Origin: a virus
Length of the DNA: 64,000 nt
Strand: one strand, 5' to 3'
Virus record (IMG/VR): IMGVR_UViG_3300036770_002724
Location: 64,001-128,000 of that record
The notes below the pieces were generated by a model that did no database searches, was not told the origin of the DNA, and saw nothing but the letters and a program-made list of their open reading frames with translations. Positions 3,679 through 49,538 of this stretch are shown here, one piece after another. Each line of letters opens with the position of its first letter. Positions within the stretch are counted from its first letter, which is position 1. The position numbers were made by a program, and so were the translations under genes.

Positions 3679-4464
3679 CTAGCGCGTAGCTAGGTGGGTC
3701 TCGACCTTTCTCACCGCTTCGGAGAGGCGTTTCGACAGGTCCTCGAAGGTTGCCCCCGACACCGTGCTATCGCGAAACAGCTTTTTGTGTTCGGGTCTTT
3801 TCGGGGTGATCGTGAGTTTATAGGCCCCTTCCTTCCCCGTGATCCGGATACTCCCGTTCCCGAAAAAGTCTTCTCCCTGGCGAACAATCAACGCTTTCTG
3901 TTCGTTCAGGGTCGGACCCTTCCGCTCTTTGATTTTCTCCGGAAGGGGTTCGATCTCGACCCATTCCCCATCTTGGCTCACCGCGTAAAGGGGAAGCTGA
4001 TGGAGGTAGGGGTCGGATGAACTGAGGGCTTTTTTCCCTGTAAGGTTTTGCTGTACTTTGATTCCTGCCTTGAGCGCCCCCGATTTGTTCGATGTCTTCG
4101 TGAAGACGAGCCACGCCTTTCGATTCCAGTAGCGGACGCTAGGTTCCGCGAGAAGACCGAGTCCGGCGGGTTTGATGAGCGGACGGGCGTCTAGTACCTG
4201 GGAAGGGCTTCCCATCTTGCGCTCGATCTCGGAGATCGCCCTGGTCGTAGGGGGTGAGGGGTCTTCCTCTCCGACGTCGAAGAATTCAAAGCCGTCGAAA
4301 GCGGAGGTTTTTTCTCGCGGTCCTTCTCGTCGGGGGCCTGATGAAGTTCGACTGTTCCCTGTAACGGTAAGTTCTCCGCCTCTCTTTTTCAGCAGAGGGA
4401 GGAGTTGGGATCGAAGCTCAGGTTTGGAGAACGCGAGACGGATGACCTTGGACCGTAGGCTCAT
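3679..4464 (-). CDS. Hypothetical protein carrying the conserved N-terminal LRSK...LLPLL leader
   Basis: 261-aa ORF beginning MSLRSKVIRLAFSKPELRSQLLPLLK; the remainder has no recognised family. Confidence 0.75.
   Translation of the reverse strand: MSLRSKVIRLAFSKPELRSQLLPLLKKRGGELTVTGNSRTSSGPRREGPREKTSAFDGFEFFDVGEEDPSPPTTRAISEIERKMGSPSQVLDARPLIKPAGLGLLAEPSVRYWNRKAWLVFTKTSNKSGALKAGIKVQQNLTGKKALSSSDPYLHQLPLYAVSQDGEWVEIEPLPEKIKERKGPTLNEQKALIVRQGEDFFGNGSIRITGKEGAYKLTITPKRPEHKKLFRDSTVSGATFEDLSKRLSEAVRKVETHLATR
4387..4464 (-). repeat. Leader-peptide repeat copy (N-terminal)
   Basis: Encodes MSLRSKVIRLAFSKPELRSQLLPLLK. Confidence 0.9.
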
Positions 4465-4555
4465 ATACGCAGGGTTCTATAGAAGGGCGAGCGGAGGGGA
4501 TCAGACGTTACGGGATTCGGATTCGTCATTATTCTTTCTCTAGCGTCTTTTAGGT

Positions 4556-5500
4556 ATGCGTCATCGTCAAGCGGCTCGACCGATTACAATTGACAAGTCC
4601 CTAATTAACTCCATCATTCATTTTCTCGTTCCGGAAATCGAGAAATGGCTAAGGCGTCGTCCGGATCAGGACTCTCCGATTGGGTCTGTTCGCAATATCG
4701 CTAAGGACGACCTTCGTGTCGAGACGGCGGACGGGTATCGCTCGCGCAACGTGAAGGTTTATGTCCACGCGCGCCCGGCTGGGTCCAAAATCAAGGGGGT
4801 GGGGTTGGCGGTTGTCGGAGGGAAGGCTCAAAAGTATTCCGACAATACTTTTGATATCCAGTTGTTCATAAACGGCGACCTAAGCCCGAAAGAGTATCTG
4901 GTTCCTAGGGAATTTTTCGGTCAACCAGTCTTTGATCGCATGGGTTGGAGGAATACCAGCCTCACTAATCTACCTCACGGGCTATACATGACTCTGATGC
5001 ACGAGGTCACCCACATCGCAGATTTTCTCCTCAACGAACGCATTAAGCAAACGTACTCCTCCAAAGAAGTGGAGGGGAAGCTCGACTCGGATCCCTCTGT
5101 TCTATCAATGTACTACAACGACCCGCTTGAGGTTCGGGCGAAAATGCAGGAGATCGCGGATGACGCGGTGCGTCTGGCCAAGCAATTGCGCCCGCTTGTA
5201 GACGGCTCTAATCAGAGGCTAATGGACACAATACTAAGGCTCAGTTCTAGCTGGCAGGAGATCGAAAAGGAGCTTACGCCCCGGAACCGGGCGCTTATCT
5301 TGAAGGCAGTCTACACCGAACTCGATGATAGGGATCTTCTTTTTGCAGACAGCCCCGCTCCGCGTATCGCCTCTCGGTACGCCCGGCGTCTACTCCCCCT
5401 ATCTTCTTCGTCTAACATGAGCGATCTACGTTCTCGTCTGGTCCGCCTCGCTTACGCTCGTTCGGACCTTCGACCCCACTTGCTTCCTCTTCTTCGGTAA
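4556..5500 (+). CDS. Putative zincin-type metallopeptidase with C-terminal RIASRY motif and leader-peptide copy
   Basis: LMHEVTHIAD (HExxH) plus downstream YYNDPLEVRA; ends ...RIASRYARR...MSDLRSRLVRLAYARSDLRPHLLPLLR*. Confidence 0.65.
   Translation: MRHRQAARPITIDKSLINSIIHFLVPEIEKWLRRRPDQDSPIGSVRNIAKDDLRVETADGYRSRNVKVYVHARPAGSKIKGVGLAVVGGKAQKYSDNTFDIQLFINGDLSPKEYLVPREFFGQPVFDRMGWRNTSLTNLPHGLYMTLMHEVTHIADFLLNERIKQTYSSKEVEGKLDSDPSVLSMYYNDPLEVRAKMQEIADDAVRLAKQLRPLVDGSNQRLMDTILRLSSSWQEIEKELTPRNRALILKAVYTELDDRDLLFADSPAPRIASRYARRLLPLSSSSNMSDLRSRLVRLAYARSDLRPHLLPLLR
5417..5500 (+). repeat. Leader-peptide repeat copy (C-terminal/orphan, with own ATG, followed immediately by stop)
   Basis: Encodes MSDLRSRLVRLAYARSDLRPHLLPLLR*, in frame with the 4556 ORF. 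Confidence 0.85.
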
Positions 5501-5579
5501 GCTGCTGAACGGCCCTCCTATCTTCCGGGTTGGGGTCTCGTTCCTTTCACGTTGGCGCAAAGCGAGTTCGATTCGCTTC

Positions 5580-5655
5580 CCGAGGTCTTTCCTCGTTTTG
5601 CCTTTTTTCCTGTGGTTCTCGGGACTTGCGTCTTCTTCGTTGGGCTTGATGGCGT
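5580..5655 (+). repeat. 76-bp direct repeat, copy 2 (intergenic)
   Basis: Identical to 2447-2522. It is followed by AA, so the same frame also ends in a stop (TAA here, TGA in copy 1). Confidence 0.95.
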
Positions 5656-5678
5656 AACGGAGGATCGACTAAACGGCT

Positions 5679-6497
5679 TTACCGAAGAGCCGACCGGATG
5701 TAATCCATCCACACGTCGTCGCGCGCCCACTGGGTCGCTTGGATGTCGATGCTCTTGAGATCAATGCCTTTGCGAGCGACATAGGCGTCGACCCGGTCGA
5801 GATTCAACAGTTTGTCGTACAGCTTGCCCGTGACGAACGCTTTGGCTTGTCGCTCTACTGAAGACCCTTCAGGGTCGGCCTTGAACCCCAGCGGCGTCAC
5901 TCCGCGCTCTACGTCTGAGAGAGCGCGGTCCATCGCAGGGCGAACCTCGCGGTCGAAGTACTCTCGCACTAGGTCGTCCACCTTGCGCTGGGTGTCCGTC
6001 TTGAGTTCCTCGACCCACTGTTCCAAGGCACGGGCGTTTTCATCTTCGCGACGGGACATCTCCCGCTCGATCTTGTTGTATTCTTGGTGGGTCACCCGGT
6101 TGATTTCGTTCTTCTTATCCAGTGCCCGGATCAGTCCTGCGTACTCACGAGCCCCACCTACTTCCTTGAGGTTTCCATCCGTCACCCGCCACATGGACAC
6201 TTCCTGTTTGTCCGTGTCGTACACCCATAGGTATTTCCATTGAGGCCCACTTCGGACGCGGATCTCTCGGGCGCCGGGTCCGCCGACCTCGGGCTCTTCA
6301 GCCGTGTCTCCGGCCAGGCTTCCGGAGTGCGTGGACAGGACGTATTTCGTTCCTGCGACGGTCTCAGTGTGCGTGTTCCGCACGAAGGGCCGGATCGGGA
6401 TGATGTCCACGGCAGTTTTCAGAAGGGGCAACAGGTGGGGGCGAAGCTCAGGCTTGGCGTGGGCCAGCCTGATGACCTTGGATCGTAGGCTTGCCAT
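5679..6497 (-). CDS. Hypothetical protein carrying the conserved N-terminal leader
   Basis: 272-aa ORF beginning MASLRSKVIRLAHAKPELRPHLLPLLKTA; helical/coiled-coil C-terminal half. Confidence 0.8.
   Translation of the reverse strand: MASLRSKVIRLAHAKPELRPHLLPLLKTAVDIIPIRPFVRNTHTETVAGTKYVLSTHSGSLAGDTAEEPEVGGPGAREIRVRSGPQWKYLWVYDTDKQEVSMWRVTDGNLKEVGGAREYAGLIRALDKKNEINRVTHQEYNKIEREMSRREDENARALEQWVEELKTDTQRKVDDLVREYFDREVRPAMDRALSDVERGVTPLGFKADPEGSSVERQAKAFVTGKLYDKLLNLDRVDAYVARKGIDLKSIDIQATQWARDDVWMDYIRSALR
6417..6497 (-). repeat. Leader-peptide repeat copy (N-terminal)
   Basis: Encodes MASLRSKVIRLAHAKPELRPHLLPLLK. Confidence 0.9.
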
Positions 6498-6506
6498 GTG
6501 ATTCGC

Positions 6507-7079
6507 TCAGGGTGCATGGAGGTGGATCTGGATGGTGATAAGCAGGTCTTTTGCGAGTTGCTCGTTGATCGTCTTTCGCATCCGGTCGAACCGCATTTCG
6601 GCAATTTCGTAGTGACCTGTGGGGTCAACGTCGTCGAGGTATTTGCTAAGGTTCGTTATCTCTCCCTTCTCGAACACCTGAAAAAGCTGTTTGAGTGGAA
6701 GTTTGATGCTTGGGTCTTGGCTCAAGAACGCGATGTAATCGCCACCCCACTTGTTCTTGATATAGTTCAAGAGTGAGGTGTCCAGATTAGCGTCGAGTGG
6801 TCCATCCACATTGAAGTCGTACCCCATGAAGTATGACTCCTCCACCCGGCGTTTCCCTGTTTCTTTGACGTACTTCCTGAGCCACGGGCTCTTCCTCATC
6901 TTGGCGAGAGCCTTTTGGTAGAGCCCTTCCATTTTCGGGTTCTGGCGGGTGGGCTTGGACACGTCATACCAGGACATGTCGTATATCGACGTCGACGCTT
7001 CTTTCAAGAGGGGCAGCAAGTGAGACCGAAGCTCAGGACGCTGGTGCGCGAGGCGGATGACCTTGGATCGTAGGCTCAT
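6507..7079 (-). CDS. Hypothetical protein carrying the conserved N-terminal leader
   Basis: 190-aa ORF beginning MSLRSKVIRLAHQRPELRSHLLPLLKEA. Confidence 0.8.
   Translation of the reverse strand: MSLRSKVIRLAHQRPELRSHLLPLLKEASTSIYDMSWYDVSKPTRQNPKMEGLYQKALAKMRKSPWLRKYVKETGKRRVEESYFMGYDFNVDGPLDANLDTSLLNYIKNKWGGDYIAFLSQDPSIKLPLKQLFQVFEKGEITNLSKYLDDVDPTGHYEIAEMRFDRMRKTINEQLAKDLLITIQIHLHAP
7002..7079 (-). repeat. Leader-peptide repeat copy (N-terminal)
   Basis: Encodes MSLRSKVIRLAHQRPELRSHLLPLLK. Confidence 0.9.
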
Positions 7080-7122
7080 ACCCCAAGACGGGGAATAAGA
7101 AGGCTAACGAAAGGGCTGGGGG

Positions 7123-8022
7123 TCAGGGATACCGTCCTCGGCGGTGGTTTTGGACGATCCGCATGGCTTCCTGCTCCGACTTCGCCTTCTCGATGAGTGC
7201 GTACAAGAAGTTCAGTTCGTAAACCGTGATCTCCCCTTTGCGGTAGTCGTCGCTCACGGCATCATACGCGCGACTGTAGGACTTGGCACGTTTCAACAAG
7301 GGGAGGAGAGCAGGTCGAAACTCTGGCTTTTGGTAAGCCAGCCGGACGATTTGGCCTCGAAGGCTAGACGTCTTGCGGATGTTCGGCGTGATCGCCTGGT
7401 GCATCCAGTGCTCCGAGGTCTGGACGTGGCCCGCTCGGACGAACTTCGCAACGTGCTTGTCGAACTGCGACATCGGGAACGCCTTCGCCACCCGCACGAC
7501 GTAGCCCTCTGCTGGAGCCGACGAACTGAACAGGGACTTGAACGGATAGAGCCCCATGATTTTCTTGGTGTCCCACCGTCCGCGCCAGACGACCGGGGCG
7601 TGAGGGATGTCCAACAGCTTCGCCCATTCCTCCACCTCGTCCCAAGGACGAGCGTTGTTGCTCCCGTCTGCGACCCCGAACAATACGAAGTAGTCGGGAA
7701 GAAGGTCATACGCGATGGAGTGCTTGGCGTAGAGGTTCTCCCCCATGAACCGCCAACCATCGGGCGCCCCCATGCAACCGATCTCGCGAGCCTTGCCCTT
7801 GACGTAGTCGCGCGAAGGATGCCCCTTTGATTCCGTGGACCGAGCGTGACATTCGCCTGACGAGTAGATGGTGGTGTTCTCCCCGTCCATCTTCTCAGTC
7901 ACGACGACCTCTTTGCCCTCAAACATCTTCTCGACGGTTTCTAGGCTGTGCGTCTTGTCGTCAGACGTGGATCCTAGAGACCACGGAAGATGGTATGTCC
8001 GAGGGTATTTGGTCTTTGTCAT
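7123..8022 (-). CDS. ATP-dependent RNA ligase family protein (Rnl2-like nucleotidyltransferase) with a C-terminal extension containing a leader-peptide copy
   Basis: KYPRTYHLPWS, motif I TEKMDGEN (KxDG), GENL, YFVLFGV, EGYVVR, AKFVR. Likely start ATG 8022 (MTKTKYPRT). Confidence 0.85.
   Translation of the reverse strand: MTKTKYPRTYHLPWSLGSTSDDKTHSLETVEKMFEGKEVVVTEKMDGENTTIYSSGECHARSTESKGHPSRDYVKGKAREIGCMGAPDGWRFMGENLYAKHSIAYDLLPDYFVLFGVADGSNNARPWDEVEEWAKLLDIPHAPVVWRGRWDTKKIMGLYPFKSLFSSSAPAEGYVVRVAKAFPMSQFDKHVAKFVRAGHVQTSEHWMHQAITPNIRKTSSLRGQIVRLAYQKPEFRPALLPLLKRAKSYSRAYDAVSDDYRKGEITVYELNFLYALIEKAKSEQEAMRIVQNHRRGRYP
7291..7368 (-). repeat. Leader-peptide repeat copy (internal, after the RNA ligase domain)
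   Basis: Encodes SSLRGQIVRLAYQKPEFRPALLPLLK. Confidence 0.85.
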
Positions 8023-8169
8023 GGCTCGTCTTAGCCGGGTTATCCAAGAAATAACGGAGCCCCCAGCGTGTACACAGGAGGGCTTGGTGCGACGTGTGAG
8101 GGGGTGATTTTTTTTGTCTGGAACCGTGTCCGTTTTGAGTAGTGCCTTGCAGGACGAAAGGACGGACAG

Positions 8170-10608
8170 ATGCACAGCAAGTTCGCACTCCACAACCTCA
8201 AGGGAAACCCCACGACCTACTACTTGGTCGAGTCCGAAGCGGTCTCTGCGCCGACGACTCCGGGACCGAAAGCCAGCCACCATATCGCGATCCTCGATGT
8301 GTCGGGATCCATGTACGGGGACATGGAGGCTGTTCGTTCGACCGTCGAGAAGGTCTTTACTGCACAGGAGTTCAATGACCCCTCTCAGTTGATCTCCCTC
8401 ATCACCTATTCGTCGAACCCTGATTGTCGGGTTCACTTCAGCCGCATCACCGTGGCAGATGTTCTTGCTCCAGGCAGCCTTCCGCTACGGGAGATCCGCT
8501 CGCTTCATACGCGCGGTTTGACCTGCATCTCCCAGGCACTTGAGGCTGCCGAGGAGTTGATCCACGACGACGAGATCACCGCGATTTCCCTCCACTCGGA
8601 TGGCTACGCGAACGATCCGTCGCCCTTCGCGGAAAGCCAGCGGTTGCTCCAGGCCGCACGGGAGATTGCGGCTCACCCTAACGTCTTCTGCAACACGGTC
8701 GCGTATCGCTCTTCTTGCGACTTCGCTCTCCTCACGGCGGTAGCGAACCAGCTTTCCGGCAAGTGTGTTCAGGCAACCTCCGCCAAAGGCGTCTACGATG
8801 CCCTGGTCGATTCCCAGAGACTTCTTGGTGGTCGCGTAGCTCCCACGGTCGAGGTGGGGCTGGGCTCTGCTGACTTCGTCACGTTCGTCTCAAAGAAGGC
8901 TCGCAAGATCCTTGGAGGCACCGCATCCCTGATGGTCCGGGGGCTTTCGGCAGATGACGACATGACGGCTTACAGGTATCGGCGCGTTGATGAGGCGGCT
9001 TACGCGGCCTCCCCCGCTTCCGAGAACGATCTGGATGCTCTCTTGGCTTTTTGCCGGTCGAACATCGCCCTGGGCAACCTCAATCCGGCCAAGTACGCCA
9101 TGATCACCACTCGGATCCCTGACCTAATCGGGCCGCACGTCCGAGCGATGGTCAACGCGGAGGTAGCCTCTTGGGCGCTTGCCGTCGAGACCCTGCTGTT
9201 CCGCGACCTCACGACTCCCGTTCACCAGAGCCCTTCCTATGGGCTCTCGGGGGCATCCACGAACACCCTGGCTGTCTTGGATGTGCTTGCGAAGCACAAG
9301 GGCTCGTTGCGGGTGCATATGCCCACCCTGCTGGACGGTTACAAGCGGCGAGGGGTGAAGAGGATTCCGGGCACCCGTGAGTCGGATGGTTCCGTCACGA
9401 AGCCGGACTTCTCGACCAAGCTCCGGTCCAAGGAGGAGTGGGTTCCGGTCTCCGGGGTCGAGATCAACCGAGACACGGCCACCGTCAATCTGCGTCTGGT
9501 GCAGGATGTTGACCTCGTGGACTCCGCTGGGACGGTCATCCCAGAGGTGGCAGGCATCAAGCTCGATCTCAAGGACTTCAAGAACTACACGCTCGTGTCC
9601 GACGGACAGGTCAACGTCGGGCGTCTACAGGTGAGGACATCCGATAAGCGGTGCTTCTCGGATCTCAAGTCTCTGGGGGTCGCTCAAGGGGACTTCGACC
9701 CCAATCAGGGGTCCGAGATCCATCTTGCGGATCTCCCGTTGGTCGATTACGACCGTCCGGTCGGCAGCATCACGGCACAGGGGTATGACCGGCTTCTGAA
9801 GCTCACGGTCCTTCAGAAGATCCTGAACGGCATTTCCGGTGAGGCGTCTGAGGTGTTCACGTCTGAGCAGATCGTGGAGTTGAAGCGGCACTACCTCACT
9901 CCCGCTCTGTACTTCAGCCCTCCCACGACCACGGCCCATGCGGACTTGAAGGCTGCGCTGGCGGCAGGCGAGGTCGATGTTCGGACCTCGTACAAGGTCA
10001 AGATGGGCATCCCGTCTATCCGCTCTGTCGCAGAGCTTTACTCGGGCAACGCTTATCTCCAGCGGAGGTTCACGTTCACGGGGGAGGACGGTAAGGCTGC
10101 TGAGAAGCCTCTCCTTTCGATGTTTTCCCAGAAGGGGGTCTGGGGTATCAAGGCGCTTTCTTCTCGTACCAAGCTGGATGAGATCGACGCCTTGACGTAT
10201 CCGATCTACGCCGAGGTCTTCGGTCTCGACTCGACGGGTGCCCTCAAAGACCTTCTTTCTTCTATCGGTGTTGATTCGACGTCCGTGCTGGATGCCTTGG
10301 CTCATCGGGTCACGGCACCAGACAAGGTGGGCGAGGTTCTTCTCGGGGTCTCTCGGCAAGTGGACGCCGCTATCGAAGCGATCTACTCCGAAGACATCAT
10401 CCCGCTGGCCTTCTACGTTGGGGCCACGGGGCTTGTTCCAGATGCTCTTGGGGCCAAGGCCATGACGCCGGATGACTTCGTTTCGAGTCATCCGGCGGTG
10501 AAGCTCTCCAAGGATGAGAAGGAGGCGATGTTCTATGCTCTTCCTGGGGGTCTTGTCCTGAGCGTTTTCACTTCGGCGGAGCACTTCACGACGGATACGG
10601 CAAAGTGA
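8170..10608 (+). CDS. vWA (MIDAS) domain protein with a large uncharacterised C-terminal region
   Basis: AILDVSGSM (DxSxS), GLTCIS (MIDAS Thr) and LHSDG (MIDAS Asp) in the first ~210 aa of 812 aa. Confidence 0.8.
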   Translation: MHSKFALHNLKGNPTTYYLVESEAVSAPTTPGPKASHHIAILDVSGSMYGDMEAVRSTVEKVFTAQEFNDPSQLISLITYSSNPDCRVHFSRITVADVLAPGSLPLREIRSLHTRGLTCISQALEAAEELIHDDEITAISLHSDGYANDPSPFAESQRLLQAAREIAAHPNVFCNTVAYRSSCDFALLTAVANQLSGKCVQATSAKGVYDALVDSQRLLGGRVAPTVEVGLGSADFVTFVSKKARKILGGTASLMVRGLSADDDMTAYRYRRVDEAAYAASPASENDLDALLAFCRSNIALGNLNPAKYAMITTRIPDLIGPHVRAMVNAEVASWALAVETLLFRDLTTPVHQSPSYGLSGASTNTLAVLDVLAKHKGSLRVHMPTLLDGYKRRGVKRIPGTRESDGSVTKPDFSTKLRSKEEWVPVSGVEINRDTATVNLRLVQDVDLVDSAGTVIPEVAGIKLDLKDFKNYTLVSDGQVNVGRLQVRTSDKRCFSDLKSLGVAQGDFDPNQGSEIHLADLPLVDYDRPVGSITAQGYDRLLKLTVLQKILNGISGEASEVFTSEQIVELKRHYLTPALYFSPPTTTAHADLKAALAAGEVDVRTSYKVKMGIPSIRSVAELYSGNAYLQRRFTFTGEDGKAAEKPLLSMFSQKGVWGIKALSSRTKLDEIDALTYPIYAEVFGLDSTGALKDLLSSIGVDSTSVLDALAHRVTAPDKVGEVLLGVSRQVDAAIEAIYSEDIIPLAFYVGATGLVPDALGAKAMTPDDFVSSHPAVKLSKDEKEAMFYALPGGLVLSVFTSAEHFTTDTAK

Positions 10609-10617
10609 AGTCCCTTG

Positions 10618-10651
10618 GGACACCGACCTGATCGAAATCAGGTCGGTGTCC
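10618..10651. terminator. 15-bp perfect hairpin between convergent genes
   Basis: ggacaccgacctgat-cgaa-atcaggtcggtgtcc, at the convergence of the vWA and methyltransferase genes. Confidence 0.7.
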
Positions 10652-11165
10652 AAGGCACAACGTCATCGGACAACGCCGCTCGTTCCTCGGGTCTCAGATC
10701 GCGCGGGCTCCCCTCTCCCCCGTAGACGATCAGATCGTTCTGGGGATGGCGGACTTCGGCCAAGACGGTTCGCCGGGCCAAGGCCCGAAACAGGTCGGGC
10801 GTCCCGCAGGACGACCCTCCGGTGTTGCAGCCCAAGTAGATCACGACCGGGCTCGTTTCGATGATCTCCAGAAGACCTGGGGACTTCCAGTTGACCGGCC
10901 AAGCCAAGAAGGCTACGTCCGGTCTTTCCTGACGGCGAGCAGTCGCCTCAAAGTACTCGGTTCGGACGACCAGTTCCGGAGGCTCGCGGGAGAAGACCCC
11001 GAGGTTCATGGGCGTCCGGTCTATCGCGACCACCTGGGAGGCGCCCATGCCCAGGAGGGCTCTCGTGTGCGTAAGGTCGCCTGCTCCGAGATCCCAGACG
11101 GCTCGGTTCCAGACGAAGTTTGCGACGACCCGCTCCATCTCGCGGGTCAGTGAGCCGTAGGGCAT
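10638..11165 (-). CDS. SAM-dependent methyltransferase-like protein
   Basis: Motif I VWDLGAG followed by VVAID. Likely start ATG 11165 with GGAGGGG RBS. Confidence 0.65.
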   Translation of the reverse strand: MPYGSLTREMERVVANFVWNRAVWDLGAGDLTHTRALLGMGASQVVAIDRTPMNLGVFSREPPELVVRTEYFEATARRQERPDVAFLAWPVNWKSPGLLEIIETSPVVIYLGCNTGGSSCGTPDLFRALARRTVLAEVRHPQNDLIVYGGEGSPRDLRPEERAALSDDVVPWTPT

Positions 11166-11326
11166 AGCCCCTCCTTGTGCCCTCCAGAGAGGACGCCTCA
11201 AAACCCGTACCCTTTGGGTAGCGGGCTTTAGCCCCGGAGCCGGACAACGAAACAGCCCCGGGACTTCATCAGGTGGGAGGCGAGATGTCGAGGCGCCCTC
11301 CCGGGAGGGCACAAGGCCCTCTGATA

Positions 11327-11545
11327 CTACCGGGGCCGGACCAGCCGGTAGTACTCGGTCGTCTTGTCTGCGGCGTCGGTGACGCGCATGAAGCGGGCTC
11401 CCGGCCCGCTCTCATACTTGTCGTCCGCCGCGAACTCCAGGGTCACCATCTGACCCTGGAAGGCGCGGGGGACATCCCAGCGCCCCTCCGCCACCTTGGC
11501 GGGGACGGTCTTAGTCGCCTTGTAGTTGAAACCGTTGACCTTCAT
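11327..11545 (-). CDS. Small hypothetical protein, directly downstream of a conserved promoter motif
   Basis: MKVNGFNYKATK... 72 aa; the ATG lies 4 nt after the TAGCTA box. Confidence 0.65.
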   Translation of the reverse strand: MKVNGFNYKATKTVPAKVAEGRWDVPRAFQGQMVTLEFAADDKYESGPGARFMRVTDAADKTTEYYRLVRPR

Positions 11546-11549
11546 GCCA

Positions 11550-11583
11550 TAGCTACTCGTGACCGAGCCCGGTTTAGCCACAA
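11550..11583 (-). promoter_or_regulatory. Promoter-like motif TTGTGGCTAAA-N17-TAGCTA (copy A)
   Basis: One of five copies with an invariant 11-mer and an exact 17-nt spacer, all immediately upstream of gene starts. Confidence 0.8.
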
Positions 11584-11648
11584 AACGACAGACGCTTCCC
11601 GAATTCCCACGGGGGTCTCGCTTTTTGTTCAATGCACTCAATCAAGTG

Positions 11649-11729
11649 ATGAGCACCCTACGTTCCAAGCTGATCCGACTGGCTCGCCAGCAGCCTACCC
11701 TTCGCCCGCACTTGCTGCCCCTACTGAGG
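11649..11729 (+). repeat. Leader-peptide repeat copy (N-terminal)
   Basis: Encodes MSTLRSKLIRLARQQPTLRPHLLPLLR. Confidence 0.9.
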
Positions 11730-11984
11730 GAGGCTTCTTCTATGGATGATGATCTGGAGTTGTCGGTCTATGAACTCTTTCCCCGCCCCGAGACTGCTAG
11801 GGCTGAAGCTGAGATCCGAAAAGAAATCGACGACGCCGTCATGGCTACCGTCAAATCCTACAAGAACATCGAAAAACTGATTAAAAAGTACAGCCACCTG
11901 GGCACGGAAGACACCGAGTCTCGGAAGCTGATCTGGGACGACTGGGAAATCTCTATGGAGAAGGCCCTTCGCGGAAAGATGTGA
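11649..11984 (+). CDS. Small acidic hypothetical protein carrying the conserved N-terminal leader
   Basis: ATG 11649: MSTLRSKLIRLARQQPTLRPHLLPLLREA... Confidence 0.75.
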   Translation: MSTLRSKLIRLARQQPTLRPHLLPLLREASSMDDDLELSVYELFPRPETARAEAEIRKEIDDAVMATVKSYKNIEKLIKKYSHLGTEDTESRKLIWDDWEISMEKALRGKM

Positions 11985-12024
11985 CGGACGCTTCCCACAC
12001 GGGTTTGCGGGAGAGGGTTCGACC

Positions 12025-12105
12025 GTGGGTATTCTACGTTCCAAGCTGATTCGACTGGCTCACCAGCAGCCTCATCTGCGGCCCGATCTGTTGCCCCTAC
12101 TGAGG
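12025..12105 (+). repeat. Leader-peptide repeat copy (N-terminal)
   Basis: Encodes MGILRSKLIRLAHQQPHLRPDLLPLLR. Confidence 0.9.
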
Positions 12106-12666
12106 GAAGCGGGATTTGCCAGGCGCGCGGTGGATACCACCTATGAGACGAAGCTGCTTCCTCCTGTCCTCAAGACCGTATTGGGCGGTCTAGGCTTCCG
12201 GAAGCGTCTGGTCAACGTGAGGGTGAGCACCCAGTATTCGATGGCTTCTCCAGGTAACGAGGGCAGCCGGGGTTTCTTCGGTATGGTCAGCTTGAATCCT
12301 CCCAAGCTGGTCGGGTCCATCCAGTACGGTAACTGGGGCGGAGGCGGCTTGGGTAAGCCTTCCCCTGTGGACACGGATACGACCTCCCGTTCTCTTGCTG
12401 ATGGGATGGTCGTGGTCCAGGGTCAAACCGGGGGCTACGTTTACGTCAATCTCGTGATGACCCCGGAGACCTTTGAGTTCATCCAACAGGATCCCCGGAT
12501 GCCCCGGAAGCCCCAAAAGAGCCTTCTGCCGGTCTATGTCCTGAAGAATCACAATGGGGTCGAGCTGGCCCGGCATACGGACATCCGAAAGCTCACGGAT
12601 GAGATGTTGCGCTACGAGATGCAGACCGGAAATCCGACCCGAATCGAGATTCTTCAGGACTCGTAA
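12025..12666 (+). CDS. Hypothetical protein carrying the conserved N-terminal leader
   Basis: GTG start with upstream GGAGAGG; MGILRSKLIRLAHQQPHLRPDLLPLLREA... Confidence 0.8.
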   Translation: MGILRSKLIRLAHQQPHLRPDLLPLLREAGFARRAVDTTYETKLLPPVLKTVLGGLGFRKRLVNVRVSTQYSMASPGNEGSRGFFGMVSLNPPKLVGSIQYGNWGGGGLGKPSPVDTDTTSRSLADGMVVVQGQTGGYVYVNLVMTPETFEFIQQDPRMPRKPQKSLLPVYVLKNHNGVELARHTDIRKLTDEMLRYEMQTGNPTRIEILQDS

Positions 12667-22123: not shown

Positions 22124-25100
22124 ATGGCATTTCCGAATGATCAGTACGCCCCTCCTGGGGTATACACCCAGACCAACTTTGAGAACCCGCTGGCCTCGAC
22201 CCTTGCTTCGGTCAAGGTGCCCGTGATGATCGGGGAGGGAAACGAGTCCCTCTTTCAGCGAAACCTCGAAGTCGTCCGGGGTTCCTCGAAGTCCGTAGAC
22301 ATCTTTGTTCCCCAGGAGGACGAGACGGGTCGGGCGGTCGTTTCGATTTCCCAGACGGGCCAGGTGACCCTCGGGGACTTCGACGGAATCCGCACCCGTT
22401 TCCGGGTCCGCCAGTTTCCCATCGTCACGGGCGACGGGACCGCGACGACCACGAACAATCGGTCGGACGTTCAAGTCACGACGACGAACAATCAGCCCCT
22501 CGTGGTCCTCTCGGTCGATGGCGCTCGGGGCATCATCGAACTGGCCCAGCCCCCGGCGGTCGGTCAGGTCGTCCGCTGCTCTTACTACTTTGACCGGACG
22601 GACACCCTGGCGACCGACAACGTGTCGGATCAGGTGACCCCGACTCCGGCTCTTATCCGAGCCGTCACCGGGATCATCGACGCCAACTCCCCGAACCAGA
22701 CGGGTCCGCAGACGCCCCTCACTTTCTACGGGGACGTCCTGAACTCGCTCGGTCAGGTGGTCGTTCCGGCGAACAACGTCCTCCTGCTTACCGTGGACGG
22801 GGTCGGACGGAACATCGTCATTCCGCCTCGCACCGGGTACACGATGGCTCAGGTGGCTTCGGCCATCTCGGCGGCGGCGGTCGGAACGCTCACCGCTTCG
22901 ACCTTCGTGAACCAGTACGGTATGTCCGCCCTCTCCCTCTCGGCGGACTTTGACATCACCGTAGGGGCAGGGTCGGCTAACGCGCTCCTGGGCCTGGTCG
23001 AAGGGGCTTCGTCGAACCGGACGAATGTCTTTTACGTCTTCAACGGGCCGATCACCGACGGCTCAAACGGCGGCGTGACCACCACCGACACCGCACACGT
23101 CACCGTGAAGGTCGATGGGCGTCAGGTCATCCCGACCAAGGTAGACGGTACGACCCGGGCGGTCACGCTCCCCTACGCGCCCAAGGCGGGCTCGACGGTC
23201 GCGATCACCTACTACTGGAACACTTGGCAGGATACGTTCGATTACCTTGCGAACATCGGGGTCAGCCAGATCACCGCTTGCGGCTTTACCCCGGGCGGTT
23301 CGGACTACATCCAGGGGGCCGACTTCATCCTCAAGGATGACAAGGTCGTCTGGGGTACGGCTTCTTTGGTGGCGGCGGGGGTCAATACCTCGGGGAGCGA
23401 GTTCTTCAACGAGTCGAAGATCACTCCGGTCCTCGTGGACAACAAGACCTTCCTCTCGCCGTGCGACCCTATCGTGGACGTGACCACGGGCGTCGCTTCG
23501 GCGCGGGACTTCACCCTTCCGTTCCAGCCGACCCTCGGAAACGGTCGAGACACTTCGCTCGGCCAGAGCCTTTTCCAGAGCGTCAGCAACGGGCGTATCG
23601 ACCTCCCGGTCAATCGCCCAGACGTGATCGACGCCTACTGGGGCTATGACGTTCCCGACGCTCTCGCTCGCGGGAAGATCAACGTCACCAAGGTCGATGG
23701 TCTGGTCATCACCCTGGAGTCGGATGTCCCGGTGGGGGCGAACGTCTACGCGACGTTCTACTACAACCGGCTGGTCGATCAGGAGTACACGCTTACCTGC
23801 ACGATTCCCGGGGTCTCGGGTGTCGGTCAGTACACGATTCAGGACAATGGCGCGAACGACCTCTTCAACGCCAAGTTCCCCACTAGCTCGAAAGGTTCGT
23901 CGCTCAACGGCGTGACCATCGAGTTCCCGTCAGGCTCGGAGTTGACTCCCGACCTTCGTCACGAGGGGTTGAGCGGGTCGGACTTCATTGGTCCGGTCGA
24001 AGAAACCGTGACCGTCCAGTTCGCCTCTCGGTGGGCGGGTCCGGCTCGGTTCTCCCTTCCGGGTTCGGCTCCATACCAGTTCATCCCGGGCCAGTCGGAT
24101 CGTCTGCGGATCCAGATCGACGGTTCGGATCTCGTGTCGGGCCTTACGGGCGCGAGCCTCAACGCGATCACGACTTCGACGAGCGCGTTTGGCAGCCTCC
24201 TCGGAAACGAGATTGCGTACACGGGCGGGACGGGCGCTACGGTCGGCCTGACCTACAGCCTAGACTCCGATGAGACGGTCAGCCTTCTCATCGACGGTTC
24301 GGATGTCGAGGTCACGGTCCCGGCGGCGAACAACGTCAACGCTAGCGTTTTCGTGGATCGCATCAACGAGGCGGCGTCGGGTCACTCCAGCACGGCGGCG
24401 GCGGGTGCAGCGGCGAACACCGAGATCGTCCTCAACGCGACGCCTCGGTCGAGCATCAACGGCTACTATGTGGGCTGGGTGGTCGTCATCGGTAACGGCG
24501 CAGCCGGTGCCGTTGCGGGTACGACGGCGGTCGTTACCGCGTACAACGGGTCCACGGGCGTCGCGACCGTGGGTTCTTCGCTCGGTGGTATCCCGCTGGC
24601 TCTCGACCCATACCACATCTACAATCCGACGGCTCGAAGCTACCTGAAGGGTGCGACGAAGTTCAGCGGTCCCGTCACGATCACGGCGGGTCAGCACGAC
24701 GACCTCCAGTTTACCTACATTGGAACGCCTTCTGGAACCTTCACGGATACCATCACGATCACGGCGGGGACTTACGCGAGCGTCGCAGCCCTCGTGACCG
24801 AGATCGAGACCCAGCTTGCGGCTTCCATCGGCGGTGCGGGTGCGGCGTTCGCGGGCCTCGACATCGAATGTTCGGCGGACGCCGACGGACGGCTCCAGTT
24901 CGCTATCCAGCTTCCGGGTGCCGATTCGGCGGGGTCGCTCCAGTTCCTCAACGCAGCTTCGGTTGCTCAGGACTTCGCCATCCTCGCCGGACTCGATACG
25001 GCGGCGGCAAGCGGCGGCGGTCAGGCGGCGCTCATCCAGGCTCCGGTCGCGGTCCTCTATACGGTCACTTCGGGCGGTGTCCGACCGTATGACCGGATTA

Positions 25101-27400
25101 TCCTACGGAACCGGATTCTTTCGGGCGGCGGAGCCAACAGTTCGATGGCTCCGGCTTCTGCGGAAGCCCAGACGGGCCTCGTAGTCCGGGGTGGAACCGG
25201 GCTGACGAAGGCAGGTTTGGAGCAGGGGTCGTTCGCGGAGGCCACGGCGAAAGCGGTGGTTCGTGCGGCGACGATTGCGGGCGAGGTGGTTCAGGACGGC
25301 GGTTACAGCGCCAACAGCGAGCTTCAGGTCACGTTCTATGACGGGACCGGAAGCGTGGCGGCGAACAACCAGTTCGCCTTCACGATGGACGGAGTTGCGG
25401 TGAACTTCGCTTTCATCGCTTCCGCGACGGGAACCGTCACTCCGCTGGGTCCGATCACGACTGCGACTACGGTCCTCGGTCAGATTGCGGCGGCGATGGC
25501 GGCGGTCGCCGGGCAGCCCTTCGGTAACGCGGCGGCGATCATCGCGGCCCGCTATGTCCGTCAGGAAGGTCTGGGGATCCGGCTCACCAGTTCGCTCTTC
25601 TCGGAGCAGTCGGTCATTACCGTCGGTTCGGGGAGCGCCAACGCGGTCCTCGGATTCACGGCAGGGACCACGGTGCAGAGGACGCTGGTGACGGCTAAGG
25701 CTTTGGCTTCGGCGGTCATGGGTCAGCGTCACGCGACGTTCAGCACCCTCCTGCTCGGGCTCGCGTCGTCGAACACCTACTTCTTCGACGAAGCCTTGGC
25801 GGGCGTCATCGAGGATGCGGCGGGGGCGGAGTACCTGTACCTCCAGTCTCGGACGGTCGGGACTAGCTCCCAGGTTCGGATTCGCTTCACGAGCGTGGGC
25901 GGTATTCGGACCCAGGACGCGACGTTCCCGGGAACCGGCCTCGACGTTCAGGATTCGGCGGGCGACATCGGAGAGGCGGCGATCAACGGGTTCTTTGTGA
26001 CCTCGAACGTCGTGAACGGCTCCGGGTCGGCTAACGACTCCATCTTGAACAACGGGACCGGGTCGGACGGTGTGATCGGCCAGACGTACCGGGATGCGGT
26101 CACGGGCCTGACCTTCACCATCTTGCCGAGGGGCTTCCAGACGAACTCGACCGGCCCGTGGGTTGCGTATCCGACGGGGGCCAATGCGACGTTCCGGGTC
26201 CAGGTCTCGAAGACGGTCACCTGTGACGCGAACCTTCCGATCACCGCTTTGCCGGGGGTCGAGTTGAAGGTGGCGAACACCTTCAACGTAGCGGCGGGGG
26301 ACACGGGCATCGTCAGCACCTTCAAGCGAGGGGGCAACGAGCCTGCGATTGGCGACCTCTACTACGTCAGCTACATCTACGAGAAGCAGGACTACAACAC
26401 CCAGTTCTTCACGAAGATGTCGTCCATTGAGGCGGCGTTCGGTTCGATCTCGCCGGACAACCCGGTTTCCCTTGCGAGCTACCTGGCGATCTTGAACGGC
26501 GCGATCCTGATCGGGATCAAGCAGGTCAAGAAGGCAGAGGGGTCGCAGCAGGGCAGTTTGGAGTCGTACCGGGCGGCTATCGAGGATCTGGAAGGGGTGC
26601 AGCCGGGCCAAGTGGCTCCGGATCTCATCACTCCGCTTCGCGGGGATTCGCTGGAGCTATTCCAGATCCTCAAGAAGTCGAACGCGATCATGTCCTCGAT
26701 TCGCTATCGCTCGGAGCGGACGAGCATCATCGGGCTCTCGGCGGGGACGCTTCCTGATGCGGCGCAGCGGGTCGCGGAGCAGCTTCGCGATACTCGGATG
26801 CGTCTCGTCTATCCGGACATTGTGACCGTGGACATCACGGATGCCTTTGGCCGGATCAAGGAATACCTGGTAGACGGGACGTACCTTGCGGCGGCGATGA
26901 CGGGTTCGGTGGTCTCTCCGAACTACGACGTAGCGACTCCGTGGACGAACCGGCTTCTCACCGGGTTCAACAGTCTCGCTCGCATCCTCGATGCGGTCGA
27001 GATGAACCAGATCGCGGTGTCGGGCGTCACGGTGCTTGAGCAGCGGGGGAACAATATCCGGGTGCGCCACGGGCTTACCACGGACATGACCAACCAGCTA
27101 ACCAAGCTCCCGACGATCATCCAGATCGCGGATGAGGTTCAGCGTCAGGCTCGGGCGACGTTGGAGCGGTTCATCGGCCTCAAGTACCTGCCGGGCATCG
27201 CTTCGCAGGTCGAGGGTCGGTTGTCGATGATGTTCAAGAACCTGGTCGCCGCTCAGATTGTTGCGGCGTACACGGGGGTGAAGGCGACTCCGGATGCGGA
27301 GGATCCGACGCTCTTGAACGTGGAGGCGTACTACAGCCCGATCTTCCCGCTGCTGTACATCGTGATCACGTTCAACCTGCGGTCGCGGTTGGCTGCCTAG
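22124..27400 (+). CDS. Contractile tail sheath protein with very large insertion (1758 aa)
   Basis: N-terminal YAPPGVYTQT; C-terminal sheath core (ERTSIIG, RLVYPD, YLAAAMTG, N.IAVSGVTVLEQ...IRVRHGLTT, ADEVQRQARATLERFIG, VEAYYSPIFPLLYIVITF). Confidence 0.9.
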   Translation: MAFPNDQYAPPGVYTQTNFENPLASTLASVKVPVMIGEGNESLFQRNLEVVRGSSKSVDIFVPQEDETGRAVVSISQTGQVTLGDFDGIRTRFRVRQFPIVTGDGTATTTNNRSDVQVTTTNNQPLVVLSVDGARGIIELAQPPAVGQVVRCSYYFDRTDTLATDNVSDQVTPTPALIRAVTGIIDANSPNQTGPQTPLTFYGDVLNSLGQVVVPANNVLLLTVDGVGRNIVIPPRTGYTMAQVASAISAAAVGTLTASTFVNQYGMSALSLSADFDITVGAGSANALLGLVEGASSNRTNVFYVFNGPITDGSNGGVTTTDTAHVTVKVDGRQVIPTKVDGTTRAVTLPYAPKAGSTVAITYYWNTWQDTFDYLANIGVSQITACGFTPGGSDYIQGADFILKDDKVVWGTASLVAAGVNTSGSEFFNESKITPVLVDNKTFLSPCDPIVDVTTGVASARDFTLPFQPTLGNGRDTSLGQSLFQSVSNGRIDLPVNRPDVIDAYWGYDVPDALARGKINVTKVDGLVITLESDVPVGANVYATFYYNRLVDQEYTLTCTIPGVSGVGQYTIQDNGANDLFNAKFPTSSKGSSLNGVTIEFPSGSELTPDLRHEGLSGSDFIGPVEETVTVQFASRWAGPARFSLPGSAPYQFIPGQSDRLRIQIDGSDLVSGLTGASLNAITTSTSAFGSLLGNEIAYTGGTGATVGLTYSLDSDETVSLLIDGSDVEVTVPAANNVNASVFVDRINEAASGHSSTAAAGAAANTEIVLNATPRSSINGYYVGWVVVIGNGAAGAVAGTTAVVTAYNGSTGVATVGSSLGGIPLALDPYHIYNPTARSYLKGATKFSGPVTITAGQHDDLQFTYIGTPSGTFTDTITITAGTYASVAALVTEIETQLAASIGGAGAAFAGLDIECSADADGRLQFAIQLPGADSAGSLQFLNAASVAQDFAILAGLDTAAASGGGQAALIQAPVAVLYTVTSGGVRPYDRIILRNRILSGGGANSSMAPASAEAQTGLVVRGGTGLTKAGLEQGSFAEATAKAVVRAATIAGEVVQDGGYSANSELQVTFYDGTGSVAANNQFAFTMDGVAVNFAFIASATGTVTPLGPITTATTVLGQIAAAMAAVAGQPFGNAAAIIAARYVRQEGLGIRLTSSLFSEQSVITVGSGSANAVLGFTAGTTVQRTLVTAKALASAVMGQRHATFSTLLLGLASSNTYFFDEALAGVIEDAAGAEYLYLQSRTVGTSSQVRIRFTSVGGIRTQDATFPGTGLDVQDSAGDIGEAAINGFFVTSNVVNGSGSANDSILNNGTGSDGVIGQTYRDAVTGLTFTILPRGFQTNSTGPWVAYPTGANATFRVQVSKTVTCDANLPITALPGVELKVANTFNVAAGDTGIVSTFKRGGNEPAIGDLYYVSYIYEKQDYNTQFFTKMSSIEAAFGSISPDNPVSLASYLAILNGAILIGIKQVKKAEGSQQGSLESYRAAIEDLEGVQPGQVAPDLITPLRGDSLELFQILKKSNAIMSSIRYRSERTSIIGLSAGTLPDAAQRVAEQLRDTRMRLVYPDIVTVDITDAFGRIKEYLVDGTYLAAAMTGSVVSPNYDVATPWTNRLLTGFNSLARILDAVEMNQIAVSGVTVLEQRGNNIRVRHGLTTDMTNQLTKLPTIIQIADEVQRQARATLERFIGLKYLPGIASQVEGRLSMMFKNLVAAQIVAAYTGVKATPDAEDPTLLNVEAYYSPIFPLLYIVITFNLRSRLAA

Positions 27401-44456: not shown

Positions 44457-44667
44457 CCTGGGGCTCGGGGAACAACCTTCGGTACATGAACCGGGTCGGT
44501 AGATAGGCCAGCCCTAGCGCCAGCGGGACCGGGATCAACAAGGCCATTGGAGGCATCCAGTCGGAGGCTGCGATACCTTGGAGCGAAAGGCCCAAGGTCG
44601 CTCCGAAGACCGCTCCGAAGGTCACGATGACGGTCAAGAACCGAGTCCAGAAATCCAGTGTCCACAT
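44395..44667 (-). CDS. Small two-TM membrane protein
   Basis: Two hydrophobic helices; 3' end overlaps the spike gene by ~60 nt. Confidence 0.4.
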   Translation of the reverse strand: MWTLDFWTRFLTVIVTFGAVFGATLGLSLQGIAASDWMPPMALLIPVPLALGLAYLPTRFMYRRLFPEPQVTRRGYASGSRGPRSRRASS

Positions 44668-44668
44668 A

Positions 44669-45712
44669 TCAGACCCTCCTCTGCGCCAGGAACGACGCGA
44701 CGGGCTTCGGCCCCCTCGGGCCTCGAACCGTCTTGTCCTCTGGGTTCTCTGAGTCCGGGTTCACCGGGCGACTCACCGTATCGAGGGGCTTCCGGACCCC
44801 CACTTTCAATCGCGCCCCCTTGTCGATCTTGGTCGTCTCGGTCGGCGTCGTCACCCCTTCGGTCTTTCGACGCGCGATGGCGTCCTGATTCACGGCTCCC
44901 ACGTCCGCCTCTTCGACCCCCGGACGAGTTGCGAGTTCACGACGGCTGACCCAGCCCGTGCGCTCGTGTCGCGAGGGCGGGACGATGAGGACGCCGTCGG
45001 GAGCGGACTCCTGACCGGGCACCATGCTCGACTTAGCTTTCTGCTCGGCAGGCTTCGTCTCAGACGGCTTTTCCGTAGGCTTTTCGGACCCTTCCGTACC
45101 CTCCGCCGCTTTCGGCGGAGGGTCTTTGGCGGCGGGCTTCGGTGCGTCCGGGTTCATCTTCTCGTAGACGGTGTCGGCCATCGTCTCTCCCGCGAGAGCC
45201 GTGTACGTCTCGTCGATCAGGTTCCCGACCGTAGCGCCCGCCAACCCGGCTGCGCCTACGGCACCAGCGGCGCCGACGATCTCCGCTACGGTTCCGGCTC
45301 CGGCGATCAGTCCGACCCCTTCCTTGAGGATCGATGAGACGCTGACCGCTTCCTTGATCGCGTTGAAGGCTGCGGCACCTGCTGCGATAGCGGCGTCTCC
45401 GACCTTCGAGCCCAGTTGGTCCCCCATAGAGGGTCGATCACGTCCCGACATAGAGCCCGGCATCGGAACGTCGGATCCGAAGAAGTCTGCCTTACCGCCC
45501 GTCTGGCTCGCGAGCTTCTCGTTGGGGAGCAGATCGCCCTCCCGGTCCACGGGCTTCTTTCCCAGATCGAGTTCCGTCAGTCGGGTCGCCGCCCGATCCA
45601 GTCCGTGGCGCTCGAAACGGTCTACGGGCTTTTGGGCTACAGGCTTCTCGGCCAGGGTCAGGAGATTGGTTGAAAGGGTCGTCTGTCGAACGTCGTTTTT
45701 CGTGATTTTCAT
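44669..45712 (-). CDS. Low-complexity protein with glycine-zipper-like hydrophobic segment
   Basis: ATG 45712 with GAGGTGAG RBS; GLIAGAGTVAEIVGAAGAVGAAGLAGATVG. Confidence 0.6.
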   Translation of the reverse strand: MKITKNDVRQTTLSTNLLTLAEKPVAQKPVDRFERHGLDRAATRLTELDLGKKPVDREGDLLPNEKLASQTGGKADFFGSDVPMPGSMSGRDRPSMGDQLGSKVGDAAIAAGAAAFNAIKEAVSVSSILKEGVGLIAGAGTVAEIVGAAGAVGAAGLAGATVGNLIDETYTALAGETMADTVYEKMNPDAPKPAAKDPPPKAAEGTEGSEKPTEKPSETKPAEQKAKSSMVPGQESAPDGVLIVPPSRHERTGWVSRRELATRPGVEEADVGAVNQDAIARRKTEGVTTPTETTKIDKGARLKVGVRKPLDTVSRPVNPDSENPEDKTVRGPRGPKPVASFLAQRRV

Positions 45713-45722
45713 GTGTCTCACC

Positions 45723-46184
45723 TCACCGGAGGTACAGGGTCAAAGCTAGGCTCGCCAGGATCATCGTGACCCCACAGAACACTCCACAGGCGAACGCCAA
45801 GGGGGGCCAGGAGGGCAGGTAGGAGCCCGTCGGGATGATCTCCCGACGGCTTCTCTTCATGTTGACGGGAGCTTCGGCCCCCGGAGGAAGACGAGGTGCA
45901 ACCAGAAGTGGAGGTGGCACCTCTTTGACCACACGGCTCGTTTTCCTTGGAGCAGGCGCAGGGACCAAAGTCGGAGTTGGCAGAGGCAGGTTCCTAGCGT
46001 ACTCGGGAACCTCCATGTCTTTGAGCGTCGGCCCTGATGACCTCCAAGAGAAGTCGGCTGGAGGGGGCGGAAGCTCCGCGAAAAGGTCCAAGAGCATGGG
46101 GACCGTATGGACAATCTCAGGTCTCTCCCTTGAGATGTCCCTCGGGTGTACGAGATGTCCAGGTGATGTTTTTGCTCGGTTCAA
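45723..46184 (-). CDS. Pro-rich protein with C-terminal TM
   Basis: 153 aa; TM LAFACGVFCGVTMILASLALTLYL. Confidence 0.5.
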   Translation of the reverse strand: MNRAKTSPGHLVHPRDISRERPEIVHTVPMLLDLFAELPPPPADFSWRSSGPTLKDMEVPEYARNLPLPTPTLVPAPAPRKTSRVVKEVPPPLLVAPRLPPGAEAPVNMKRSRREIIPTGSYLPSWPPLAFACGVFCGVTMILASLALTLYLR

Positions 46185-47034: not shown

Positions 47035-47055
47035 AGACCGGAAACTATCGGGCCT

Positions 47056-49500: not shown

Positions 49501-49538
49501 TGGAGCGGGTTTCCTTCCGTCAGTGGGGAAGCGTCGGT

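Follow-up and report, generated by a model that had tools for sequence, protein, structure and literature searches.

To our knowledge, very few cases of an address peptide shared between phage proteins have been studied experimentally. In T4, a large phage, the capsid-targeting sequence (CTS) of the internal proteins IPI-III and of Alt is a short peptide that unrelated and non-essential proteins of the conflict type have in common. It comprises ~10 residues, is strictly N-terminal, can be moved to other cargo and is cut off at a consensus site by the prohead protease. The cargo-loading peptides of encapsulins are small, terminal, carried on flexible linkers and sometimes repeated, and they dock cargo inside a shell of the HK97 fold; the coat-binding element of the P22 scaffolding protein is a basic helix-turn-helix. 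Effector-associated domains (EADs) and Death-like domains of prokaryotic conflict systems are small alpha-helical adaptors found on many unrelated effectors and hub proteins, which are thought to act by homotypic contacts and in whose systems vWA proteins participate (PMC7159879, PMC8195603). Polyvalent proteins of phages and conjugative elements join their domains covalently in one polypeptide (PMC5512222). Here we describe a 23-residue peptide, hereafter the tag, which recurs on unrelated proteins of an uncultured virus. It was noticed in a window of 64,000 nucleotides (the whole stretch of DNA that was analysed at the start), corresponding to bases 64001-128000 of the 139,036-bp IMG/VR record IMGVR_UViG_3300036770_002724 (the contig). 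The tag is genuine and previously undescribed, and its most likely role is in docking, by which accessory enzymes would be brought together in one assembly.

A profile built from the seven copies in the window was used for a six-frame scan of the whole contig. Nine tag copies were identified with E-values of 9e-9 to 3e-17, and everything else scored E ~1 or worse. The seven window copies listed in the initial annotation are all present and translate as it described, with individual E-values (3e-14 to 3e-17) far beyond chance. The two further copies lie outside the window, at positions 24574-24640 (gene 24511-24927) and 63337-63417 of the record, the latter just before the window. A 'divergent copy' proposed at window position 52446 gave no profile score and was discarded as a non-member. 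All-vs-all BLASTP of the nine tagged proteins with their tags masked returned no pair below E 0.1, the attached Pfam domains differ, and similarity ends within one residue of the motif, which confirms that the cargo parts are unrelated and that the resemblance stops abruptly after the peptide. The copies have a mean identity of 62% at the nucleotide and 67% at the amino-acid level. Their codon differences comprise 327 synonymous and 277 non-synonymous changes, and each invariant residue is encoded by three to five different codons, as expected from the synonymous variation first noticed. These results indicate that the repeat is real, old and maintained at the protein level; selection acts on the peptide, not on the DNA.

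Tag position and copy number were counted in 243 retrieved tag proteins with 473 tags. The tag is N-terminal in 206 cases, internal in 194 and C-terminal in 73, and the commonest architectures are N-terminal plus internal (81 proteins), N-terminal alone (53) and N- plus C-terminal (46). Proteins with two to five tags on charged linkers are frequent. On the contig, the tag forms the final 27 residues of the HExxH protein, at its extreme C-terminus, and in the RNA ligase it occupies residues ~221-243 of 299, from three residues past the ligase homology, with a tail of 56 aa after it. The peptide is therefore not the shared N-terminal leader that had been proposed. It also differs from T4-type leaders in that it is not followed by a conserved protease site: information in the 473 tags falls to ~1 bit or less right after L26 and position 28 is E in just 24% of copies, although the protease specificity of this clade may differ from that of T4. 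Like the T4 CTS, the tag is portable between unrelated proteins. Unlike the CTS, it has 23 conserved residues, may lie at either end or inside, and often occurs in several copies, and the two peptides share no sequence similarity.

We further searched the 33-column profile against 1.84 billion cluster representatives (50% identity clusters). Of the 3,688 proteins identified at E<=1e-3, all of them metagenomic and many with two to seven matched stretches, 506 reached E<=1e-10. No Pfam or PHROG family covers the tag, the sole trace being a sub-threshold match to PF19692 over the motif, and full-text literature searches for the motif strings returned nothing relevant. The earlier statement that no described family has this sequence thus stands for Pfam, PHROGs, the PDB and the literature, but the 3,688 cluster representatives show that the peptide is not private to this phage. 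In IMG/VR, the tag is found at 5-15 copies per viral contig, on contigs of 94-536 kb. Among deposited phage records, LR745208.1 alone has it, in 11 copies; this unannotated record of 485 kb comes from an uncultured phage with a terminase 58% identical to that of the contig. The closest cultured phage, Tunturiibacter phage Tunturi_5, has a terminase of ~30% identity and lacks the tag. A pattern-based scan that covered 185,579 prokaryotic species with one genome apiece confirmed just two contigs, of 1.3 and 1.9 kb, both from metagenome-assembled genomes (MAGs) of Acidobacteriota, indicating that the tag is virus-specific. The host is probably an acidobacterium, and the carriers are uncultured very large phages with a capsid protein that matches PDB 6WKK. 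Taken together, these results show that the tag is modular, position-independent, multivalent, virus-specific and under selection at the peptide level, and the initial view of a swappable module on non-homologous proteins is borne out.

The 23-residue core, L-R-x-x-[LV]-I-R-L-A-[HY]-x-x-P-x-L-R-x-x-L-L-P-L-L, consists of two similar halves, LRxxLIRLA and LRxxLLPLL. Thirteen positions of the logo exceed 3 bits and lie on all helix faces, and outside positions 4-26 information is ~1 bit or less. The best-conserved residues are A12 (100%), R19 (98%), P16 (96%), L23 (95%), P24 (94%), L11 (93%), L4 (91%), R5 (88%), I9 (85%) and R10 (84%). The flanks are 66% K/E/D/G/S/P/Q/N/A, which are disorder-promoting residues, and successive tags are separated by linkers of 4 to 680 residues. 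Linkers also vary between orthologues (22 vs ~125 residues): the 272-aa tagged protein of the contig has a tagged orthologue of 59% identity in G007, one of the related IMG/VR records (given G numbers here; 66 share the contig's terminase at 51-65% identity), in which the linker from tag to core is far longer. Tag identity is 0.73 within and 0.69 between genomes, the difference lying at loop positions 14, 15 and 17, and genome-specific co-adaptation of the tags is small and limited to these loop positions. The core positions are invariant across genomes with ~57% identical terminases, suggesting that the interface of the tag's partner is very conserved, be it the tag itself or, for example, the capsid protein. 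Such invariance is as expected of a self-complementary or very conserved interface.

A natural 63-aa protein, P0035, consists of two tags and an eight-residue linker. Its AlphaFold model, for which the input included 27 extra rows, nearly all single-tag segments, has a pLDDT of 78 and a pTM of 0.55 and shows four helices, each tag forming a helix-kink-helix. Over all 63 residues it superposes on compact four-helix bundles (Z 5-6.7). Foldseek against the PDB gave nothing below E 6.8, a PDB sequence profile search gave no match except a designed protein at E 0.57, and a search of the ESM Atlas with the tag gave generic helices only. The tag resembles encapsulin cargo-loading peptides in being terminal in many proteins, tethered by flexible linkers and sometimes repeated, and resembles the P22 element in its predicted basic, two-helix form. 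In contrast to encapsulins, in which the peptides are shorter and extended and the cargo genes adjoin the shell gene, tagged genes here are scattered. The closest to the capsid gene is 12 kb off on the contig, and G030 is the only genome with tagged genes in the head operon. No sequence match links the tag to the encapsulin or P22 peptides in the PDB, and binding of the tag to the capsid protein would be hypothetical.

Most of the regions attached to tags belong to no known family. Recognisable cargo on the contig comprises the RNA ligase and the HExxH protein, and elsewhere RelA/SpoT, the 2H-SAK and HAD-SAK RNA-repair domains, ART-PolyVal, WGR, pentapeptide repeats, GNAT, DUF2958 and a ParB-like 'DGHHRW' domain. 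The RNA ligase, RelA/SpoT, 2H/HAD 'Swiss-army-knife', ART-PolyVal, WGR, pentapeptide and ParB-like types are typical of host conflict, in line with the counter-defence or host-takeover role suspected for the cargo from the start. The same domain repertoire occurs in polyvalent proteins that are injected with phage DNA (Iyer et al., PMC5512222). The likeness covers ART-PolyVal, ParB-like, metallopeptidase-like, RNA-repair and nucleotide-signal enzymes, and extends to the TopoIB-containing polyprotein that follows the portal in this phage. However, in polyvalent proteins the domains are covalently joined, whereas here separate genes share a putative docking tag.

A second class of tag proteins is free of enzymes and consists of tags strung together with charged linkers and further short conserved motifs. 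Across the tag proteins P0001-P0243 these motifs are 'GCEKLPxGPMRxNCxKK', 'YLKDHPNADPKNH', 'AKPETKERMKG', 'EEGKPADPTENM', 'NPDTGN..SLP' and a longer one, motif B. Those other than motif B are undescribed and not present on this contig, and PHROGs matched the largest tag proteins to families of unknown function only. The coexistence of single-tag enzymes with multi-tag linker proteins is the arrangement seen in EAD and Death-like systems, where one module sits on unrelated effectors and on hubs. Those adaptors are domains of 80-100 residues in cellular defence systems with NTPase cores, whereas the tag has 23 residues and is confined to viruses.

Motif B is a 48-residue acidic motif with the consensus FDPEEI..EPG.L....DEPYMKGEFT.QE..EL.D.QE.G.L and a mean charge of -8.8, compared with +2.7 for the tag. 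It was found in 19 of the 243 tag proteins, where it usually begins <=2 residues past the end of a tag (Tag-B-Tag). The single motif B of the contig (E 3.7e-14) is in the head operon, in a gene (protein P0244/P0245) located between the 1,425-aa TopoIB polyprotein, which directly follows the portal, and an intein-bearing prohead protease. Its 32 homologues start with a helical domain, which is followed by motif B and by a helical stretch rich in Ala and charged residues, and finish with a conserved 'HGYDLFA'-type C-terminus; none of them has a tag, and a degenerate tag considered in P0244 ('LLRLAKTSP...') was dropped at -3.2 bits. Since the hub motif B otherwise occurs only in this head-operon protein, the assembly could be tethered to the procapsid. 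A second link to the head comes from G030, which is syntenic with the contig from terminase to capsid. In G030, a same-strand tagged gene of 134 aa has been inserted after the protease/'638-aa' pair and ahead of the 229-aa gene, the immediate neighbour of the capsid gene, which places the insertion two genes upstream of the latter. A second tagged gene (351 aa) is found a few genes further along. On the contig, the 229-aa protein in the scaffold position is encoded at 49431-50120 of the record.

We then related the presence of the tag to gene content. The tag was found in 13 of the 25 large terminase-sharing IMG/VR records searched, and in a terminase tree it is spread throughout the clade. 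One subclade of 11 records (support 100/99) has lost it: nine are tag-free and two (G012 and G025) carry weak copies, and the absence was upheld by a broader profile. The 156 ORFs (open reading frames) of the contig, with tags masked, were compared with the tag-free genomes G009, G016 and G022 (complete) and with the tag-positive G007 and G030. Forty-eight ORFs occur in all five genomes, and seven follow the tag, being present in both tag-positive and absent from the three tag-free genomes. Six of these seven, those of >=80 aa, are listed in Table 1, and they include the motif-B gene and the gene of a VWA protein. Among 31 genomes, the motif-B gene is found in 17 of 19 tag-positive records, in none of the 11 members of the loss subclade and in two of the three tag-free records outside it.

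The reading that we favour, with a probability of roughly 0.35, is that the tag forms a self-associating adaptor network that recruits accessory enzymes and is tied to the head via motif B. The tag would be a position-independent docking module, a helix-kink-helix on flexible charged linkers, and would bind another tag copy, two tags making a four-helix bundle as in the one AlphaFold model. Single-tag proteins (the RNA ligase, the HExxH protein and proteins of unknown function here; RelA/SpoT, 2H/HAD, ART, WGR, ParB-like and pentapeptide proteins elsewhere) would be clients, and multi-tag proteins made of tags and other short motifs would be hubs. Together they might correspond to the polyvalent multi-domain proteins of other phages, but with non-covalent links. 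The likeliest destination would be the assembling head, with the assembly tethered to the procapsid and delivered with the DNA. Binding to one common phage partner, which the initial annotation had offered as an alternative, fits best, and loading into the head, part of its first proposal, is plausible; we infer it from the link between motif B and the head operon, the tagged genes in the head operon of G030 and the co-loss of the tag with the head-operon and VWA genes. More tentatively, cargo loading in this uncultured clade, related to the phage whose capsid is PDB 6WKK, may be programmable at two levels: the self-associating tag would bring a changing set of counter-defence enzymes to multi-tag hubs, and motif B would tie these to the procapsid, followed by delivery with the DNA. 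It is conceivable, at a similarly low level of confidence, that such loading is the non-covalent equivalent of polyvalent proteins and the phage counterpart of encapsulin cargo loading.

Several observations weigh against the adaptor network and its tie to the head. Self-association has the support of a single medium-confidence model, AlphaFold is prone to bundling short amphipathic helices, and the bundle matches of P0035 are generic, indicating only that both tags pack together. For a Tag-B-Tag protein, the model was poor (pLDDT 59) and showed no confident packing, which leaves the acidic motif B unsupported as an intramolecular receptor of the tag. No Tag-B-Tag hub was found on this 26%-complete contig. 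The tagged genes lie mainly in mixed-strand accessory islands outside the head operon, the conserved protease site after the tag is missing, and cultured relatives lack the tag. The co-loss of the tag with the motif-B and VWA genes is essentially a single event, and G012 has three recognisable tags without a motif-B or VWA gene; these tags are eroded at otherwise conserved positions (R10H, P16T, L4V and L25A). Finally, binding, packaging and injection by the tag are predictions from sequence.

The alternative that survives best is that the tag works in the cytoplasm: the enzymes would gather on a VWA hub or on each other in the infected cell, for instance as an RNA-repair or counter-defence complex or condensate, and nothing would be packaged. 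We consider this possible but doubtful. The VWA gene tracks the tag, as it is present on this contig and in nine other genomes and is missing from all 11 genomes of the loss subclade (31 genomes). Tagged genes flank it on this contig, a tagged gene starts 40-53 nt past it in G001, G007 and G018, and one is 319 nt away in G029; this proximity is unlikely under random placement (P<=1e-4), yet it represents only about three independent lineages. The location of most tagged genes in accessory islands and their architecture of stickers on disordered linkers would also fit, and VWA proteins are co-chaperones or adaptors in other large viruses (PMC7824862). However, the VWA protein itself carries no tag, unlike the adaptor sharing of EAD and Death-like systems. 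No MoxR ATPase, which was looked for as its partner, is encoded, and the gene that follows the VWA gene varies among relatives. The nearest tag is 6.6-20 kb off in G005, G027, G028 and G030, and G006 has both the motif-B and VWA genes yet no tag in its 143-kb fragment, while G012 has tags and no VWA gene. In the ESM Atlas, the protein matches only other uncharacterised VWA proteins, and look-alikes occur in organisms without the tag. Moreover, motif B in the head-operon protein would be left unexplained. The VWA protein is retained as a candidate partner or hub of the tag.

It is less likely that the tag is a direct capsid-cargo peptide, binding the interior of the HK97-fold capsid or the scaffold with no contact between tags. 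The 290-aa capsid protein matches phrog_2522 (1.6e-48) and PDB 6WKK, 'Gp27 major capsid protein' (3.5e-62), which we take to be the capsid of Bacillus phage G. It is 86-88% identical across the clade, compared with ~57% for the terminase and ~61-66% for the portal, and such conservation is unusually strong for a capsid protein. The constancy of the capsid protein would match the invariance of the tag core, the basic, linker-tethered, terminal and sometimes repeated helix-kink-helix resembles cargo-loading peptides, and a tagged gene is close to the capsid gene in G030. On the other hand, the tag-free subclade retains the same capsid protein, most tagged genes are distant from the capsid gene, and the tag has no sequence similarity to any solved capsid-binding peptide.

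Less probable again is that the partner of the tag is a host hub that is conserved, be it chaperone, RNA polymerase, ribosome, clamp or membrane, or that the tag is the site recognised by a modifying enzyme; diverse phage proteins would then be sent to a single host machine. The invariance of the core across divergent phages might be read in this way, and Leu-rich segments with basic flanks resemble chaperone-binding peptides. In 16 related loci and the island on this contig, though, the neighbours of tagged genes belong to no recurrent protein family (a given neighbour is common to 3 of 17 loci at most), which argues against a tightly linked modifying enzyme or receptor. The hydrophobic moments of the two helices are moderate (0.42 and 0.32) and thus speak against a generic membrane anchor. 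Multivalent hubs made only of tags and linkers would be hard to explain, and tag loss coincides with loss of phage genes. Finally, an ordinary paralogous family of diverged full-length homologues with the peptide as its best-conserved end, which the clustering of several tagged genes in one island might have suggested, is excluded by the dissimilarity of the masked proteins, their unrelated folds (RNA ligase, HExxH, RelA/SpoT, ART and WGR), the sharp end of similarity at the motif and its variable position.

The tagged genes of the window and the other features discussed are collected in Table 1. The RNA ligase probably starts at the ATG at 8022, with the long ORF that reaches 8436 untranslated beyond it; the match to phrog_24030 stops at residue 355 of that long ORF. 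The 111-aa protein has a tagged orthologue, P0209, on a 170-kb NCBI contig. No shared promoter or ribosome-binding-site cassette was found upstream of the tagged genes, indicating that the tag does not belong to a portable module at the DNA level. The genes at 11649 and 12025 alone share a short upstream element (GACGCTTCCC...CACGGG), at ~11590-11615 and ~11985-12005, and an obvious Shine-Dalgarno sequence is missing from most tagged genes.

Table 1. Features of the contig, with positions numbered in the window or, where marked, in the whole record.
Feature	Coordinates	Strand	Length	Tag or remarks
Protein of unknown function	3679-4464	-	261 aa	N-terminal tag 4387-4464 (E 5.7e-16), then ~60-aa low-complexity linker
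HExxH protein	4556-5500	+	314 aa	metallopeptidase-like motif HEVTH; tag 5417-5497, stop 5498-5500 (E 3.4e-14)
Tagged protein	5679-6497	-	272 aa	N-terminal tag 6417-6497
Tagged protein	6507-7079	-	190 aa	N-terminal tag 7002-7079 (E 1.1e-16)
RNA ligase	7123-8022	-		PF09414 (2.4e-27), phrog_24030; tag 7291-7368
VWA protein	8170-10608	+	812 aa	untagged; N-terminal VWA domain (MIDAS DxSxS); mid tagged island; lost with the tag
Tagged protein	11649-11984	+	111 aa	N-terminal tag 11649-11729
Tagged protein, GTG start	12025-12666	+	213 aa	N-terminal tag 12025-12105
ORF with the alleged divergent copy at its N-terminus	52446-53333	+	295 aa	no profile score
Small DNA-binding protein	55016-55501			lost with the tag
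ORF beside tagged gene 24511-24927	24194-24511 (record)			lost with the tag
ORF beside tagged gene 24511-24927	24931-25617 (record)			lost with the tag
ORF beside tagged gene 24511-24927	25622-26857 (record)			lost with the tag
Motif-B gene, head operon	42773-43876 (record)			lost with the tag
Prohead protease gene	44539-47280 (record)			intein (Hint and LAGLIDADG matches)
Capsid protein gene	50139-51011 (record)		290 aa	

Further observations concern the surroundings of the head module. The ORF at 52446 has a homologue of 52% identity in G007, within the structural region of that genome (106959-107795). In some relatives the motif-B protein is found in very long open frames, G004:97483- (1337 aa), G023:106441- (2334 aa) and G018:82511- (1107 aa), which suggests fusion with neighbouring head genes. 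The terminase genes of G001 and G004 look interrupted, with split matches in frames of 1071 and 682 aa. An 'R-[VI]-A-S-R-[YV]' motif occurs close to the ends of several proteins encoded around the head module, at 5360-5385 of the window and at 27487, 29126, 38544, 38667, 39148, 44272, 57149 and 58618 of the record; in the HExxH protein this contig-private motif (RIASRY) is immediately upstream of the tag. It was rejected as a part of the tag system because all 243 tag-family proteins lack it and five related genomes are essentially free of it. The completeness of the record was estimated by CheckV at 26%, so the phage genome is probably several hundred kb long, and additional tagged genes and hub proteins may be located outside the contig.

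The tag is unusually large and well defined for a shared peptide, with 3,688 clusters and 13 near-invariant positions, and unlike a leader it can take any position and occur in several copies. From sequence alone, it marks the accessory and counter-defence repertoire, mostly of unknown function, of a whole clade of uncultured huge phages, and its candidate partners can be shortlisted as the tag itself, the motif-B head protein, the VWA protein and the capsid protein. If the tag is self-associating or docks to the capsid, it would be a compact and portable handle for assembling or encapsulating proteins, and phages would be able to make polyvalent effector sets through docking instead of gene fusion.

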